Assembly (NCBI GenBank): GCA_044220495.1
Contig: JBGAQY010000007.1
Location: forward strand, 11,112 to 75,111
From: Acidimicrobiales bacterium
GTDB taxonomy: Bacteria > Actinomycetota > Acidimicrobiia > Acidimicrobiales > JBBSGY01
DNA: 64,000 nt
Direction of reading: 5' to 3'
Shown here one piece after another: positions 3,692-9,705 of this stretch (its first letter is position 1; each line of letters begins with the position of its first letter). Made by a program: the position numbers and the translations under genes. The notes under the pieces were generated by a model that saw nothing but the letters and a program-made list of their open reading frames with translations, was not told the origin of the DNA and made no database searches.

Positions 3692-4243
3692 ATGAGTAAC
3701 CCAACGCTCGAAGAGCTCACCGGTCCTGAATTTGCGAGCGCAGTCGAGTCGCTGCCGCTCGACGAGCTGCGCCGCCGCCGCACGGCCTGTCAAGACGCCG
3801 AAGAGGCCTTGTCGCTGCAACGGCGACTCGTGCAAGGTCGTCTCGACATCGTGCAAGCCGATCTGTATCGACGCAGTGGTGGATCAGACGATGAAGTTGC
3901 GAATCTTGTTGCGTCACTTCCTGACATTTTGGTTGAGCACGGTGATCGTCATCTCGGTCCAGGGCGCCTGACCTCTGTCGAGAGTGGCTCAATCGCTCTC
4001 GGTGCAGATTTCGAGAAGCTTGTAGATCGTCTCGATGAAATAGTTGACGGCGCAAAGCTTTCGAGTCTCGACAGCTACGACGAATCAGACGTACGTCGAA
4101 TAGCGGACGAACTCGACGAACTCGAACGTGGCATTTCGGTCAAGCGTCATCAACTGCACAAACATATAGATCGATTTCAAGAAGAAGTGGTTCGTCGTTA
4201 CAAGACCGGCGAGGCCTCTGTCGAGGGATTGCTCGGTTCGTAA
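3692..4243 (+). CDS. rsiG: RsiG/AmfC family c-di-GMP-binding anti-sigma factor
   Basis: LDELRRRR...EEALSLQRRLVQGRLD matches E-x3-S-x2-R-x3-Q-x3-D; a second copy ERGISVKRHQLHKHID has Q replaced by H. Confidence 0.8.
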   Translation: MSNPTLEELTGPEFASAVESLPLDELRRRRTACQDAEEALSLQRRLVQGRLDIVQADLYRRSGGSDDEVANLVASLPDILVEHGDRHLGPGRLTSVESGSIALGADFEKLVDRLDEIVDGAKLSSLDSYDESDVRRIADELDELERGISVKRHQLHKHIDRFQEEVVRRYKTGEASVEGLLGS

Positions 4244-4282
4244 CTGCACTGCAAAACAAAGTGCGCTGCGACCGAAAGAGCG

Positions 4283-4316
4283 AACAATCGTGAACTGGAT
4301 CTTTCTCGATTGTTTT
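4283..4316 (+). terminator. Possible intrinsic terminator after rsiG
   Basis: Perfect 8-bp inverted repeat aacaatcg/cgattgtt followed by a short T run; the loop is long (16 nt). Confidence 0.35.
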
Positions 4317-4354
4317 GACCTACGCCGCTTGCCCAACTAGGTTGCTCGACCAAG

Positions 4355-4428
4355 ACGGGCTTGGAAGAACAGCACGCCTCATTCGTTCGGGGAAGTGCGA
4401 ATGAGGTGCGAGCACCTTCCAGGCCCGT
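4355..4428 (+). other. Long nested intergenic stem-loop of unknown function
   Basis: acgggcttggaag pairs with cttccaggcccgt, and cgcctcattcg pairs with cgaatgaggtg; the mismatches are G-U on the + strand. Confidence 0.55.
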
Positions 4429-4588
4429 TGCTTTGTTCTTGAAAGTGTTTCTGAAGTCAATTCTTGGTGGTTTGTTACTAACCAAAAGCGTTATCTGAAT
4501 TTGCCTGCCAGCGATGCGTTTTATTGAACGCTTGCCGCGCCCAACTAGATGGGCGGCGTCGTGGCTCAACTGATCGGACAATTTCGTA

Positions 4589-5698
4589 GTGACTTTTCTT
4601 GTCAACAACAAGCGCGCACGGCTGTTTGGGTGTGTTGCGATGCTGTTGTCATCAGCATTCATGGCGGCCCCTGCGGTAGCTGCTGATCAACCCGGCCCCA
4701 AAGCATCGATCGACGAACTGAAAGCAAGCGACGCCGAGCTAACGGCTGCTCTTGCTGATCTCGATGCACAGGTTGCCAAGAAGCAGATTTCATTGCGTAG
4801 CGCGCAGCAAGCTCTTGACGCAGCCAACACCGCTCTCGCCAACAGCGACTCGGCAATGGCACAAGCGCAAGCCCGTATTGATCAGCTGCGTGGCGCTGCT
4901 GCGCAACGCGCAATCGATCAATACATGTACCCACAAGATGATCCGATTGGCCGAGTCTTGGGTTCAGACGGGTTGGCCGATGTCGGCCGACGCGCTGCTT
5001 TGCTGCAAGAAGTCAACGGACGCGATCGCGATGTCATCGACCAGTTGGGTGCGGCACGCTCTGATCTCGAACGCGAACGCAAAGCAGCGACTGCTGCACG
5101 TGCAATCGCCGACCAGCGACGCGCAACTGAGCAAGCTGCTCTTGATCAGTTGACGAAGACGCGTGATGAAAAAGCACGACTCGATAAGTCGTTGCAACAG
5201 CGCATCGAAACCTACGCAGCTGAAGATGAAGCTGGCGCAGCAAGCACCAAGACGACGACTTCTGGTCGTGCATCACGCGGTGGTGCTTCGTCGGTTGACG
5301 ATCGCATCTCGGCTGCCGGCATGCGTTGGCCTCTGCAGGGTCCGATTCGTTCGCCGTTTGGGCCTCGATGGGGTCGTATGCACACCGGTATCGACATTGG
5401 TGGCACTGAAGGTGCGCCGATCTATGCGGCCAAGGCCGGCAAAGTTATTTCCGCCAACTACGACGGCAGCGGTTACGGCAACCTCACAAAGATCGACAAC
5501 GGCGGCGATCTCGAAACTTGGTATGCGCACCAAAGTCGAATTGCAGTCTCGGCCGGCCAAACTGTCGAAGCAGGCGAGCTCATCGGATATGTCGGCCATA
5601 CCGGCCATGTCGTCCCTGCCAACGCAAGCGGCGCCCACCTGCACTTCGAGACCCGCATCGGCGGCTCGCCGCGAAACCCTCAGCAATACCTGCCGTAA
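4589..5698 (+). CDS. Secreted M23 peptidase with an N-terminal coiled coil (murein hydrolase or activator type)
   Basis: Signal peptide (..AAPAVAA), long coiled coil, HTGIDIG and HLHFE zinc motifs, TWYAH; start codon uncertain. Confidence 0.92.
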   Translation: MTFLVNNKRARLFGCVAMLLSSAFMAAPAVAADQPGPKASIDELKASDAELTAALADLDAQVAKKQISLRSAQQALDAANTALANSDSAMAQAQARIDQLRGAAAQRAIDQYMYPQDDPIGRVLGSDGLADVGRRAALLQEVNGRDRDVIDQLGAARSDLERERKAATAARAIADQRRATEQAALDQLTKTRDEKARLDKSLQQRIETYAAEDEAGAASTKTTTSGRASRGGASSVDDRISAAGMRWPLQGPIRSPFGPRWGRMHTGIDIGGTEGAPIYAAKAGKVISANYDGSGYGNLTKIDNGGDLETWYAHQSRIAVSAGQTVEAGELIGYVGHTGHVVPANASGAHLHFETRIGGSPRNPQQYLP

Positions 5699-5766
5699 CG
5701 CCTGCTGCCAACATTGCTCACCGACTCCACCGTCGGTTCGATGGATCGTTCCACTAGCGTGACGCC

Positions 5767-6549
5767 ATGCTTTGCATAATCGGCGGCGGAAAAATGGGTG
5801 AAGCGCTACTTGCTGGTCTTACGGCCCACGGTCGCGAGGTCACCGTCATCGAACGTGATCCTGCTCGTCAGGAGTATCTGAAGATGCACCCCGCTGGCTA
5901 TCAAATCTCTGAGAAGCCTGTGCCATGCGAAGGCGCAATCATTGCGGTGAAGCCCAAAGACGTTGAGCTTGCGATAAGCGACGCGGTGACTGGTGGGGCA
6001 CAGCGCATCTTGTCGATCGCCACCGGCATAACGCTGGCCAAACTGCATCAAGCTGCTGGTGGTCGCGTGCCCGTCGTGCGTGCAATGCCCAACATCGGCG
6101 CGTTGGTTGAGCGTTCAGCCACGGCGATTTGTGGCGGATCGACTGCACACGAAGAAGACCTCGTGTGGGCTGAGTCTGTGTTGTCATCAAGCGGACGTGT
6201 TGTTCGCATTGCTGAAGATCAGATGGATGCCGTTACCGGGCTGTCGGGCTCGGGGCCGGCGTACTTGTTCTTGATTGCCGAAGCGATGATCGACGGTGGT
6301 GTCGCAGCAGGGCTTTCGCACAACGCAGCAACCGAACTGACAATCGAAACGTTTGTCGGCGCTGGTGCATTGTTGGCGTCAAAGACGCGCGCTCCGGCAC
6401 AATTGCGCGCTGATGTAACAACGCCAGCTGGCACGACCGCTGCTGCATTGAGACGTCTCGAAGATCGCGGTGTTCGCGCTGCGATTGTCGATGCAGTGTT
6501 GGCAGCGACGGCGCGCAGTCACGAACTCGGCTTGCCGCAGCAGCACTGA
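5767..6549 (+). CDS. proC: Pyrroline-5-carboxylate reductase
   Basis: IGGGKMG, RAMPN, TGLSGSGPAY and VTTPAGTT motifs. Confidence 0.96.
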   Translation: MLCIIGGGKMGEALLAGLTAHGREVTVIERDPARQEYLKMHPAGYQISEKPVPCEGAIIAVKPKDVELAISDAVTGGAQRILSIATGITLAKLHQAAGGRVPVVRAMPNIGALVERSATAICGGSTAHEEDLVWAESVLSSSGRVVRIAEDQMDAVTGLSGSGPAYLFLIAEAMIDGGVAAGLSHNAATELTIETFVGAGALLASKTRAPAQLRADVTTPAGTTAAALRRLEDRGVRAAIVDAVLAATARSHELGLPQQH

Positions 6550-6559
6550 CGCGCATTCG

Positions 6560-7369
6560 ATGACGAAGCAGTACCAAACGATCTCGTTTTTGAGCGATTA
6601 CGGATTGCGCGATGAGTTTGTGGGTGTAACCAAATCAGTGATCCATTCGATCGCTCCACACACCACTGTCATTGACATCACTCATGAAGTTCCGGCTTAC
6701 GACGTTCGTTCTGGATCACTCACGCTTGTTCGCGCGGCGAACTACTTGGTGGCTGGCGTAGTGATTGCTGTTGTTGATCCGGGCGTGGGATCGGCGCGGC
6801 GCGCGATTGCTGTTGAAGTCGGTGACGGCGAAAGCGTGCTCGTGGGCCCCGACAACGGGCTTCTTGCCCCAGTTGTGTCGCTCATCGGAGGGCCAACGCG
6901 GATCGTCGAGCTTGTCAACGAGAAGTACCAACTGACGACCGACGCAGCAACGTTTGCTGGCCGCGACATTTTTGGTCCAGCTGCCGCGCACATTTGCAAC
7001 GGAGTTGATCTTGCGGAGTTTGGTCCGTCGATCGACGCCTCAGAGTTGATGCCCGCGGTTGTGCCCTTCAGTGCCGTGTCGAACGGATCACTCGAAGCCG
7101 ACGTGTTGTGGGTCGATCGTTACGGCAATGTGCAACTCAATGTCACGCCGAATCAGCTGAGCGATTACGGCGATCGCATTGTCGTGAAGATGACGAGTGG
7201 GCCCGTCACTGCAACACGCGCTCGAGCGTTTGCTGATCTTGCTTCAGGCGAAGCGGGATTACTGATTGATGCAAGCGGTCTCGCCGCGTTGGTGCTCAAT
7301 CAAGACTCGGCCGCTGCTCGTTATTCAGTTGCCGAGGGCGACAGTGTTTCGCTTCACCGCCCGCTGTAA
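6560..7369 (+). CDS. SAM hydrolase / SAM-dependent halogenase family protein (DUF62)
   Basis: FLSDYG, DITH, VVDPGVG, GPDNG, TFAGRDIF and DRYGN motifs. Confidence 0.92.
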   Translation: MTKQYQTISFLSDYGLRDEFVGVTKSVIHSIAPHTTVIDITHEVPAYDVRSGSLTLVRAANYLVAGVVIAVVDPGVGSARRAIAVEVGDGESVLVGPDNGLLAPVVSLIGGPTRIVELVNEKYQLTTDAATFAGRDIFGPAAAHICNGVDLAEFGPSIDASELMPAVVPFSAVSNGSLEADVLWVDRYGNVQLNVTPNQLSDYGDRIVVKMTSGPVTATRARAFADLASGEAGLLIDASGLAALVLNQDSAAARYSVAEGDSVSLHRPL

Positions 7370-7379
7370 CTTCCGAGAA

Positions 7380-8096
7380 CTAGCCCTGGGTTGCGATCGA
7401 ACCGACTTCAGCCAGACCTTGCACAATGCGAGCCGACGGGGTCGGAAGCACGGGGGCTGGGGCTGGAGCAGGAGCTGGGGCCGCAACGGCGGGGGCCGGA
7501 GGCGGTGCAGGCTGAACGGCCTTGGCTGAGCTCGAGACAGGCTTGGGCTTGGCTGCTGGCTTAGGGGCAGCAGTCGGCTTTGGTGCTGCAGGCTTGGCGG
7601 CGGCAGCAACCTTGGGGGCCGGGCTCGACGAAGCCGAGCCACTCGATCCGCCAGCGCCTGGGTAGGCAGCGAAGACGTGTGAGGTGTAGATGCGGTTGTC
7701 GCTGCCAACGGCAACGCCTACGCCGATGCTGTTGAACGAGCCCTCGACCATGTTGCGGTAGTGGCCTGAGCTGGCGACGAGGGCGTCAAAGATGGCGTCG
7801 ACGTCTCCGCCGGTGCCCACGTTCTCGCCGACCTTGGTCCAGTTGCCCGGAACGCTGCCGAGAGCGGGGTTGTGCGAAATCTTGTTGGCGGCGGCCATTT
7901 TCTCGGCCCACGCCTGAGCGACGCCTGACAGACGACCGTCGACGCTGAGAGCGCCGAGGCCCTTTGATGCCCGCAGGCCGTTGATCTTGGAAACAAACTC
8001 GCCTGAAGTTGCTGCTGATGCTGGTGCTGATTGAAGGATGGAAACAAATAGGGCAATGGCAAGTGCCACAAATGCGATAGAGCTTCTTTTCTTCAA
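7380..8096 (-). CDS. Secreted CAP (SCP/Tpx/Ag5) domain protein with a Pro/Ala/Lys-rich linker
   Basis: Signal peptide; INGLR, SHN, GENVG, SSGHYRNM and IGVG CAP motifs; AGGAGG Shine-Dalgarno 7 nt before the TTG start. Confidence 0.9.
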   Translation of the reverse strand: MKKRSSIAFVALAIALFVSILQSAPASAATSGEFVSKINGLRASKGLGALSVDGRLSGVAQAWAEKMAAANKISHNPALGSVPGNWTKVGENVGTGGDVDAIFDALVASSGHYRNMVEGSFNSIGVGVAVGSDNRIYTSHVFAAYPGAGGSSGSASSSPAPKVAAAAKPAAPKPTAAPKPAAKPKPVSSSAKAVQPAPPPAPAVAAPAPAPAPAPVLPTPSARIVQGLAEVGSIATQG

Positions 8097-8136
8097 ACTT
8101 CAGCCTCCTGGTGATCCCACTTGGAGGCACGAATGC

Positions 8137-8229
8137 CCCATTCGGTAGCCCGGCTGCCATGAGGGAAGATCCCTGTAAGGCCCTTGGCTTTGCGCCTCAC
8201 CGATTTCTCGGTGGTTGCCGTTTCGTGGG
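8137..8229 (-). ncRNA. Class I cyclic-di-GMP (GEMM-I) riboswitch aptamer
   Basis: Minus strand CCCACGAAACGGCAACCACCGA-GAAA-UCGGUGAGGCGCAAAGCCAAGGGCCUUACAGGGAUCUUCCCUCAUGGCAGCCGGGCUACCGAAUGGG. It shows P1 CCCACG/CG..UGGG, a GNRA-capped P2, GCAAAGCC, a tetraloop-receptor-like CCUUA..AUGG, and G20/A47/C92 equivalents. Confidence 0.85.
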
Positions 8230-8246
8230 TGTTTGTTGTGGTGGCT

Positions 8247-8273
8247 TTATCGGAGTTTCCCGAGAAGTCTTGA
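8247..8273 (-). promoter_or_regulatory. Putative sigma28/WhiG/FliA-type promoter for the riboswitch-CAP transcript
   Basis: Minus strand TCAA-N15-TCCGATAA versus consensus TAAA-N15-GCCGATAA; ends about 17 nt before the aptamer. Confidence 0.5.
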
Positions 8274-8442
8274 GGGCCGACTTCAAACCGTCACGTTCTG
8301 AACCGTTCAACAAGATCACGAATTTCTAAGAAATCCCTGGTCGACGTGCCCTCTTGATCGCTAAGCACCGAGGCCTCGTTAACATGGCCGCCGTGCCGAT
8401 TCGTAACGTGTTCTCCACAGACAGTGACGAGGGGCACCCACA

Positions 8443-9705
8443 GTGTCGGTAGTCATGGTCGGTTTGAGCCACCGAAGCGCGGGCCTCGATCTCGTTGGCA
8501 AGGCAGCAGTTGCGCCCGACCACATGCCCGAGTTCCTTAAGCGCCTATTGAAGAGCGATCACATCACCGAGGCTGCTGTGCTGTCGACGTGTATGCGCAC
8601 CGAGGTCTATGTCGACGCCGTTCGTTTTCACGGCGCAGTCGCTGACGTCCGCCTGGTTCTCGCCCAGAACGCCGACGTTCCTCTCGAAGAAATCACCGGT
8701 GAAACCATCGAGCTGTTCGATGACGCCGCCAGCCGACATCTATTTAGAGTCGCCGCCGGGCTCGAATCAGCTGTCGTTGGCGAGGCCGAGATCTTGGGTC
8801 AAGTGGCGCGAGCGTGGAGCTCCGCCCGTGAAGTCGGAGCGTCGCGTCTCGTGCTCGGGTCGTTGTTCCGTCACGCCGTGCGAGCCGGCAAGCGTGCCCG
8901 TCACGAGACGGCCATTAGTCGAGGCATCACGTCAATCGGCCAGGCCGCTGTCGTAATGGCCGAACGCGCCGTGGGGGGATTGGCCGACAAGCGCGTACTC
9001 ATCCTTGGCGCCGGAGAGATGGGCGGGGGCATGGGTGCAACTCTCAAGGTTGCTGAAGGCGTCGGCGATGTTGTCGTATGCAACCGCACACAAGGGCGTG
9101 CTGAAGAACTCGCTACTGAGATTGGTGCACGGGCGATTCCGTTTGACGAGTTGTTGAGTGAGCTTCAGTTTGTCGATGTCTTGTTGACATCCACAGCTGC
9201 CGAGCACGCTGTTCTGAGCGCTGATGACGTGCGACGGTCGATGCAAGGGCGGGCCCAACGGCCGTTGGCGATTGTCGACATGGGTTTGCCGCGAGACGTT
9301 GAAGAATCGGTTGCCGAGATCGACAACGTCACCGTGCTTGATCTGTCTGATCTCGAGTCATTTGCTGACGTTGGCCGCAGTGAAAGGTCCAACGAAGTTG
9401 CAAGTGTCGAGCAGATCGTTGATGCCGAAGCGGTTGCCTATGCGCACGACATTTCAGCGCGATCGGTCGTTCCGGTAGTGCGTGGGTTGCGTGATCGCGT
9501 CGAAGAGATTCGTCTTGCTGAGCTAGAGCGTCGTCGCACGCAGCTCGACACGCTGAGCGCCGAGCAGCGCGCCATGGTCGAAGCACTCACACAAGCAATG
9601 CTTGCCAAAGTTCTGCATGGCCCAACTGTTCGCCTCAAACATGCGGCCGGCACCCCTGAGGGCGAACGCATGGTCGAGGCCGTTCGCAACTTGTTGGATC
9701 TGTAA
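8443..9705 (+). CDS. hemA: Glutamyl-tRNA reductase
   Basis: GLSHR, STCMRTE, GLESAVVGEAEILGQ and LGAGEMG motifs. Confidence 0.95.
   Translation: MSVVMVGLSHRSAGLDLVGKAAVAPDHMPEFLKRLLKSDHITEAAVLSTCMRTEVYVDAVRFHGAVADVRLVLAQNADVPLEEITGETIELFDDAASRHLFRVAAGLESAVVGEAEILGQVARAWSSAREVGASRLVLGSLFRHAVRAGKRARHETAISRGITSIGQAAVVMAERAVGGLADKRVLILGAGEMGGGMGATLKVAEGVGDVVVCNRTQGRAEELATEIGARAIPFDELLSELQFVDVLLTSTAAEHAVLSADDVRRSMQGRAQRPLAIVDMGLPRDVEESVAEIDNVTVLDLSDLESFADVGRSERSNEVASVEQIVDAEAVAYAHDISARSVVPVVRGLRDRVEEIRLAELERRRTQLDTLSAEQRAMVEALTQAMLAKVLHGPTVRLKHAAGTPEGERMVEAVRNLLDL

Follow-up and report, generated by a model that had tools for sequence, protein, structure and literature searches.

A probable sigma-28/WhiG-type promoter ahead of a c-di-GMP-I riboswitch in the Acidimicrobiales: a candidate double c-di-GMP gate on a secreted CAP-domain protein

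We analyzed a 64,000-nt stretch of DNA (the window, whose numbering is used throughout) from the 3.0-Mb assembly of an Acidimicrobiales bacterium (the host genome, G000), in which the gene for a secreted CAP/SCP-domain protein is preceded by a cyclic di-GMP (c-di-GMP) riboswitch and, further upstream, by a motif resembling the promoters read by sigma-28-family factors. The gene (7380-8096, minus strand) encodes a protein of 238 aa with a match to PF00188 at residues 36-136 (63.1 bits, cut-off 21.1), a Pro/Ala-rich C-terminal tail and an N-terminus, KKRSSIAFVALAIALFVSILQSAPASA, that is signal-peptide-like as judged by eye. The 347-nt intergenic region ahead of it carries, on the same strand, a c-di-GMP-I (GEMM-I) aptamer (8141-8229) that matches RF01051 over the whole model (1-87/87; 62.1 bits, gathering cut-off 35, E 1e-9) and is present in a single copy in both the window and the assembly. 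An rsiG gene (3692-4243, plus strand), encoding a predicted twin-motif c-di-GMP-dependent anti-sigma factor, lies 4.4 kb from the riboswitch. The original prediction for this locus held that high c-di-GMP would silence the promoter through RsiG and close the riboswitch on the same transcript, and the gene arrangement on which it built, an aptamer ahead of a secreted-protein gene, is upheld by the matches above.

The motif, TCAAGACTTCTCGGGAAACTCCGATAA (8247-8273, minus strand), has the form TCAA-N15-TCCGATAA and lies 17 nt 5' of the aptamer within the intergenic region. Its -35 element (8269-8275) has the core TCAA at 8270-8273 and, in its extended form CCTCAAG, is identical to the order-wide consensus CCTCAAG, while the -10 element TCCGATAA (8247-8254) begins 15 nt past the TCAA and ends 151 nt before the TTG start codon. 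The site departs from TAAA-N15-GCCGATAA at 2 positions. The resemblance to the FliA/WhiG consensus and the spacing from the aptamer claimed at the outset both stand. With a -35 of TCA and a -10 of TCCGA, it satisfies both published search criteria for WhiG promoters, one that tolerates at most 2 mismatches for sites no more than 200 bp from a start codon (Schumacher 2021, PMC8325347) and one that takes GCCGA with its first two bases variable as the -10 (PMC13595943). Taken alone, the motif match is weak evidence for a promoter: the window holds 8 matches to TAAA-N15-GCCGATAA with at most 2 mismatches against 1.7 expected. Our arithmetic from these window counts gives a probability of about 5e-4 for a correctly oriented match falling in the roughly 35 nt that precede the aptamer. 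The seven other 2-mismatch matches lie at window positions 1139, 18031, 21812, 38087, 42531, 53221 and 61946. A scan of positions 7300-8500 returned no sigma-70-type promoter and no intrinsic terminator.

In the order, 49 of 251 genomes contain 119 c-di-GMP-I aptamers, 118 of them with enough upstream sequence to be scored. Using a -35 of T[C/A]A and a -10 of GCCGA with a single mismatch permitted among its two leading bases (the PMC13595943 criterion), a WhiG-type motif was found within 70 nt upstream of the aptamer in 84 of the 118 cases (71%), compared to 2.5% of other 70-nt windows from the same loci, 2.4% of shuffled sequences and 4/118 on the reverse strand. A stricter form of the motif precedes 48% of the aptamers and occurs in 0.3-0.5% of controls, so that the enrichment ahead of the 118 riboswitches amounts to roughly 30-fold to 100-fold. 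The strict match mostly ends 9-21 nt before the aptamer, the overall distance varying between 9 and 38 nt, and the motif is found irrespective of the class of the downstream gene (CAP, 42/52; pilin, 14/23; other, 28/43). Among 30 further aptamers sampled from the phylum, 22 carry the motif within 70 nt, with about six more 45-60 nt upstream. What had been put forward as a case at a single locus thus recurs across the order and in the phylum sample, and the conservation first proposed as a check is found at both levels; these sequence comparisons indicate that the pairing of promoter and riboswitch is an order-wide and phylum-wide rule. Two members of one family, G188 (L117) and G140 (L118), have CAP-class riboswitches behind a sigma-70-like TTGACC-N17-TAGGTT and lack the WhiG-type motif, in what looks like a promoter replacement at an otherwise orthologous locus.

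Phylogenetic footprinting gave a matching picture. When 10 orthologous upstream regions representing different families are aligned, no columns before the aptamer other than TCAA and CCGA are invariant; these two blocks are held at a fixed spacer length while the spacer sequence and the flanks vary. With a two-block weight matrix derived from 56 riboswitch promoters, all of them from other genomes, the site at 8247-8273 comes ninth (20.4 bits) when every position of the 3.0-Mb host genome is scored on both strands, and 18 of the top 26 hits there fall between genes, with about 86% of the genome classed as coding by crude gene calls. The same motif class stands 7-9 nt ahead of the start codon of 23 host genes against 2.9 expected, which is the geometry of leaderless transcripts; since these genes calibrate the distance from the -10 element to the transcription start site (TSS), the TSS of the CAP gene is predicted at 8238-8240 on the minus strand, in agreement with the position expected originally. 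Because the order-wide census, the footprint, the independently trained matrix and the leaderless geometry all point the same way, we read the motif at 8247-8273 as very probably a correctly placed sigma-28/WhiG-type promoter. The loose published motif, with 4192 matches in the host genome (202 of them at most 200 nt upstream of the start of a gene), was rejected as too permissive to define a regulon by itself.

The available RNA evidence is a metatranscriptome of one biofilm containing a near-identical strain, at very low coverage. A 202-nt contig assembled from it covers positions 8020-8221, starting within the aptamer and reaching 76 nt into the coding sequence, with nothing upstream of 8221; at a depth of 6.2 it is the deepest of 14 small contigs that map to the window's first 20 kb. 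It fits a TSS just ahead of the aptamer and proves little. The rest of the CAP gene is uncovered by RNA, which could reflect a stable leader fragment or merely sparse data. The DNA runs that contain the window sequence derive from a bioreactor metagenome.

Between the aptamer and the CAP start codon, the leader contains the elements of a putative translational expression platform, all on the minus strand. In the aptamer alignment, a G left unpaired precedes the G-C/C-G junction pairs (AAAC-G-GC) and the 3' tail reads ACCGAA; these nucleotides may map to the ligand-contact positions of the Vc2 riboswitch, where a G at G20 and a C at C92 mark c-di-GMP rather than cGAMP as the ligand. By analogy with the P1 helix of Vc2, the 5' strand of P1, CCCACG (8224-8229), can pair with CG(AA)UGGG (8137-8144) to form P1 or, through its CCCAC, with a candidate anti-P1 element, GUGGG (8116-8120). 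A hairpin, H1 (GGGGCA-UUCG-UGCCUC, 8124-8139), overlaps the 3' strand of P1 with its own 5' strand and carries in its 3' strand an anti-Shine-Dalgarno sequence, GCCUCC (8123-8128), complementary to the Shine-Dalgarno (SD) sequence GGAGGC (8103-8108; GGAGG at 8104-8108) located 7 nt before the TTG start codon at 8094-8096. In the minimum free energy (MFE) fold of the leader the SD is paired with GCCUCC (unpaired probability at most 0.01), and the CCCAC/GUGGG pairing appears in the constrained MFE fold in which the SD is held open.

A comparison of 53 CAP-class leaders indicates how this platform may operate. At least 31 of the 53 keep H1 with a covarying inner stem, in leaders ordered as ACCGAA, UGGGG(G)C, the H1 3' strand GCC(C)UCC, usually GUGGG, a GGAGG SD and the start codon; an exact 5-nt anti-P1 complement is present in 18 of these 31. 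P1 itself covaries across the leaders (CCCA/UGGG, CCCG/CGGG, CCG/CGG). The UGGGG that follows ACCGAA occupies what we take, from the Vc2 structure, to be the position of the P1 3' strand, and it overlaps H1. In 16 short CAP-class leaders without H1, the SD (UGGAGG, CGGAGG) sits within the P1 3' strand itself, and in these leaders ligand binding could therefore act only by occlusion, that is, in the OFF direction. Comparative evidence from these leaders makes it quite probable that the riboswitch is a translational OFF switch, as is Vc2 of Vibrio cholerae with its element directed against the ribosome-binding site (RBS), Vc1 being an ON switch (bioRxiv 10.1101/617340). This half of the two-layer OFF logic first proposed is thus well sustained, and it is likely that a WhiG-type promoter and an OFF riboswitch are joined on one transcript.

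The anti-sigma factor and its potential partners were then considered. RsiG, whose reading frame is open from GTG 3662 with ATG 3692 as the likely start, matches PF22802 in two stretches (76.6 bits, cut-off 27) and finds its best match in the Protein Data Bank in Streptomyces venezuelae RsiG (6PFJ/6PFV, E 6e-14) over its full length (residues 18-181), which confirms the identity given to it originally. Its first motif, EEALSLQRRLVQGRLD, fits E-x3-S-x2-R-x3-Q-x3-D exactly, and 9/10 contact residues are kept over both motifs. A search of the genome contig collection returned no RsiG relatives. The WhiG/FliA-type sigma factor on which the proposed circuit depends is present, the host genome having two sigma-28 paralogues. 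One of them (G000:C67:140953-141741) scores 281.5 bits against TIGR02479 (cut-off 189.6) and 325 bits against S. venezuelae WhiG (6PFJ_A) versus 159 bits against FliA, lies in the gene order dprA-whiG-M23-GNAT-rpsB-tsf-frr-cdsA, and has its closest relatives, at up to 86% identity, in Acidimicrobiales metagenome-assembled genomes; it is WhiG2-like, scores and synteny serving here as proxies for clade membership in place of the authors' tree. The other (G000:C86:23266-24207), which is WhiG1-like, scores 206 bits against TIGR02479, is equally distant from WhiG and FliA and shares 38% identity with its WhiG2-like paralogue.

The distribution of rsiG offers a further point of contact with the riboswitch. 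RsiG is encoded in 45/49 riboswitch-bearing genomes versus 126/202 others (Fisher p 3e-5, uncorrected for phylogeny). In 7 genomes of 6 families (besides the window, G002:C31, G077:C6, G081:C131, G135:C2, G047:C2 and G120:C145), rsiG and a c-di-GMP-I riboswitch share a contig at a distance of 4-12 kb, mostly in convergent orientation. Such proximity is suggestive, but it could reflect either a functional linkage or plain synteny in a conserved neighborhood.

We propose that the CAP gene is transcribed from the sigma-28/WhiG-type promoter CCTCAAG-N14-TCCGATAA, with a start near 8239, and that the resulting transcript would be subject to a second c-di-GMP input in its leader. In the ligand-free state, the 5' CCCAC would pair with GUGGG and H1 (GGGGCA/UGCCUC) would hold the anti-SD, leaving the SD free. 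Upon c-di-GMP binding, P1 (CCCACG with CG-AA-UGGG) would form and take the 5' strand of H1, and the GCCUCC freed by this exchange would pair with the SD GGAGGC and switch translation off. The promoter would be read by sigma-28-family factors of the host, among them the WhiG2 orthologue, for which sequestration by RsiG-(c-di-GMP)2 is expected, so that rising c-di-GMP would both lower initiation and silence existing mRNA, with both layers acting in the OFF direction. The elements themselves, with their positions and conservation, are observed here, and the TSS, the OFF logic and the choice of sigma factor are deduced. We lean modestly towards this explanation as a whole, that is, towards the combination of promoter, OFF riboswitch and RsiG-sequestered WhiG2.

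Several observations weigh against this explanation. The WhiG1-type gene lies within the flagellar cluster, among flgK, flgL and two fliC flagellin genes; the spacing at 8247-8273 is the N15 of true flagellar promoters, whereas most sites in the order and the WhiG targets of Streptomyces have N16; and WhiG1 is reported not to be bound by RsiG, which controls and binds the WhiG2 clade only (PMC13595943). Furthermore, the second motif of RsiG, ERGISVKRHQLHKHID (window 4121-4168), reads E-x3-S-x2-R-x3-H-x3-D, with His in place of Gln, and three genomes of one family (f3) without RsiG or a WhiG2-like sigma keep both motif and riboswitch (3/3), with CTCAAG-N15-GCCGACAC ahead of the CAP riboswitch, which makes the pairing of promoter and riboswitch independent of RsiG. 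The sole RNA contig is likewise sparse, its coverage being too thin to map a TSS. Together with the presence of the same motif class ahead of flagellar-cluster genes (matrix ranks 10 and 18), the points concerning WhiG1 and the f3 genomes would agree with a circuit in which the promoter is served mainly by the flagellar paralogue under a flagellar checkpoint in place of RsiG, the CAP protein belongs to the motility regulon and the riboswitch is the single c-di-GMP sensor. We consider this alternative rather unlikely. Twelve genomes that have one strong WhiG2-like sigma-28 together with RsiG retain the motif at 16/24 riboswitches, including those of the CAP class, and the recurrence of rsiG near the riboswitch in six families also counts against it. 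Moreover, WhiG1 and WhiG2 both complement a Streptomyces whiG mutant and thus read similar promoters (PMC13595943), so that leaving WhiG2 out would call for a discriminator, and none was found. By the same token, the sequence does not settle the reader of the CAP promoter, and WhiG1 could keep it on at high c-di-GMP, since RsiG binds WhiG2 only. RsiG gating of the CAP promoter is accordingly best described as plausible, and the RsiG layer of the logic first proposed is, with a WhiG1 paralogue present, not established. A possible discriminator, the -10 variant (CCGAAGA at flagellar genes, CCGATA elsewhere), was rejected because genomes with a single paralogue have all variants.

The direction of the riboswitch and the nature of the motif admit other readings as well. 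GEMM-I riboswitches of both signs exist, Vc1 being ON and Vc2 OFF, and CCCAC and GUGGG might conceivably form a long-range P1 that encloses H1 with the SD left free; were the ligand to free the SD while WhiG2/RsiG turned the promoter off at high c-di-GMP, expression would be confined to an intermediate range of c-di-GMP or would come as a pulse. Folding calculations do not decide this point and themselves count against the double gate, since the conformer with P1 and sequestor (-46.1 kcal/mol) is favored over that with anti-P1, H1 and an open SD (-42.7 kcal/mol) by 3.4 kcal/mol even when ligand-free. The energy model thus shows no equilibrium switch, and switching would have to be kinetic, that is, co-transcriptional; thermodynamic folding was rejected as sole proof of switching, as the SD-sequestered conformer is favored with or without P1. 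The placement of UGGGG where we take the Vc2 P1 3' strand to lie, its overlap with H1, the covariation of P1 with UGGG/CGGG/CGG, and the 16 leaders whose SD is part of P1 and which allow the OFF direction only all speak against an ON switch, and we regard such an incoherent arrangement as improbable. More improbable still is that the motif is no working promoter, the transcript then originating at some different promoter of the 347-nt intergenic region, housekeeping or not, or the two blocks being conserved as part of the RNA. This reading can draw on a TSS placed by inference only, on the eight near-consensus matches in the window, which make single matches cheap, and on the relatives G140 and G188 with their sigma-70-like TTGACC...TAGGTT ahead of the same riboswitch. 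It is difficult to reconcile, however, with the roughly 30-fold to 100-fold enrichment ahead of the 118 riboswitches, with two fixed blocks whose distance from the aptamer varies (9-38 nt) and whose intervening spacer is constant in length but not in sequence, with the occurrence of the motif in leaderless geometry ahead of genes without a riboswitch, with the lack of a sigma-70-type match in 7300-8500, or with the RNA contig that stops at 8221.

The proposed double gate has relatives among characterized systems. In the RsiG-(c-di-GMP)2-WhiG switch of S. venezuelae (Gallagher 2020, PMC7005675; 6PFJ/6PFV), a twin-motif RsiG acts on a WhiG to which the host WhiG2 is orthologous (325 bits to 6PFJ chain A), and the whiH, whiI and vnz15005 promoters are of the same -35/-10 type as the one described here. 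In contrast to that species, where sporulation regulators are controlled, this promoter type serves a secreted CAP protein here and, at other places in the genome, surface proteins, pilins and flagellar genes; a c-di-GMP riboswitch is part of the transcript, the spacer is N15 and not N16, and a second, flagellar paralogue is present. Further counterparts come from unicellular actinobacteria, with the (RsiG)2-(c-di-GMP)2-WhiG complex acting on type IV pili in Rubrobacter radiotolerans (Schumacher 2021, PMC8325347) and a regulon survey of WhiG1 and WhiG2 (Denis 2026, PMC13595943). In these accounts WhiG-type promoters drive genes for pili, motility and c-di-GMP metabolism, the site at 8247-8273 passes the criteria of both, and twin-motif RsiG is reported in Acidimicrobiales (PMC8325347 / PMC13595943). 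What sets the present case apart from them is that 71% of the c-di-GMP-I riboswitches of the order lie between such a promoter and its gene.

Control of one gene by c-di-GMP at both transcription and translation, as proposed here, is known from V. cholerae tfoY, where the GEMM-I OFF riboswitch Vc2, likewise with its anti-RBS element downstream of the aptamer, is combined with VpsR-dependent promoters (bioRxiv 10.1101/617340). There, c-di-GMP works through an activator to induce promoters P3 and P4, which are located within the aptamer or beyond it and bypass the riboswitch. In the Acidimicrobiales locus, unlike tfoY, a single promoter feeds the riboswitch, and c-di-GMP would be sensed at the transcriptional level by a sigma/anti-sigma pair that works in the same direction, OFF. 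In Clostridioides difficile, the Cd1 c-di-GMP-I riboswitch controls the flgB operon, which contains sigD, from a SigA promoter; this system likewise joins a c-di-GMP-I riboswitch, a sigma-28-family factor and motility. The order of command is reversed, however, since the C. difficile riboswitch controls synthesis of the sigma factor and here a sigma-28-type promoter drives the riboswitch transcript. The merRNA of Bdellovibrio bacteriovorus, a c-di-GMP riboswitch RNA of the FliA-dominated attack phase (PMC3627812), differs in being non-coding and in having no anti-sigma factor linked to c-di-GMP; it was rejected as a precedent, as Table 2 of PMC3627812 flags no FliA promoter for it. Literature searches combining WhiG, FliA, SigD or sigma-28 with c-di-GMP riboswitches returned reviews, work on C. 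difficile and the Bdellovibrio merRNA, and no paper on this pairing; the word riboswitch is absent from PMC8325347 and PMC13595943 and is mentioned as background only in PMC7005675. The combination, which the original prediction had supposed to be undescribed, is a new arrangement of known parts.

Current accounts of actinobacterial c-di-GMP signaling rest on BldD and the RsiG-WhiG switch and have so far not included riboswitches; aptamers positioned systematically behind WhiG-type promoters would join both types of sensor on single transcripts. We regard as evenly balanced the broader proposition that Actinomycetota c-di-GMP-I riboswitches stand, as a rule, behind WhiG/sigma-28-type promoters and that surface and secreted targets (CAP proteins, type IV pilins, glycosidases) are doubly gated by RsiG-(c-di-GMP)2 and a riboswitch. 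If true, this would amount to a previously undescribed two-tier c-di-GMP circuit of phylum-wide extent. It predicts a post-transcriptional shut-off that is fast and adds to the slow sequestration of sigma, a means of separating the output of the RsiG-controlled sigma from that of its flagellar paralogue, and a defined regulon of low c-di-GMP comprising CAP proteins and pilins. For regulon prediction, WhiG targets called from their promoters may hold a second c-di-GMP input in the leader.

Among 112 open reading frames downstream of these riboswitches in the order, 46 encode a CAP domain and 24 a type IV pilin N-terminal methylation motif, the remainder including glycoside hydrolases, a GGDEF protein, a TadE-like protein and others; the presence of pilins fits the link between WhiG and pili described in Rubrobacter (PMC8325347). 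Pilin-class riboswitches (L016, L032, L038, L050, L056, L084, L095, L100, L113 and others) have a common leader, ...TGCGAGCAGGTGC, between the WhiG-type -10 element and an aptamer that starts tcttgacaaagg.

In the host genome, the motif class is found also ahead of flagellin and other flagellar-cluster genes, of TadE/TadG-like pilus genes and of a family of secreted proteins. The flagellar-cluster promoters at G000:C86:7118, 13558, 15631 and 18392 (all on the minus strand) read CTCAAGG-N15-(G/A)CCGAAGA or GCCGAAAT, not CCGATA. No WhiG-type promoter was found ahead of rsiG in the host genome under loose criteria. At G000:C67:141796(-), 55 nt 5' of whiG2, there is a weak WhiG-like motif, CTCATA...N...GCCGATGT, which hints at autoregulation of the kind reported for some species (PMC13595943). 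Examples of the leaderless geometry in the host are C8:4380(-), C30:4296(-), C103:15315(+), C83:9928(+) and C47:103012(+), and several of the genes with this geometry encode secreted proteins of 520-560 aa that share a C-terminal domain, ...TFTV.GR...CNGQ...NAANGF.VY.R...YTAVP.F.

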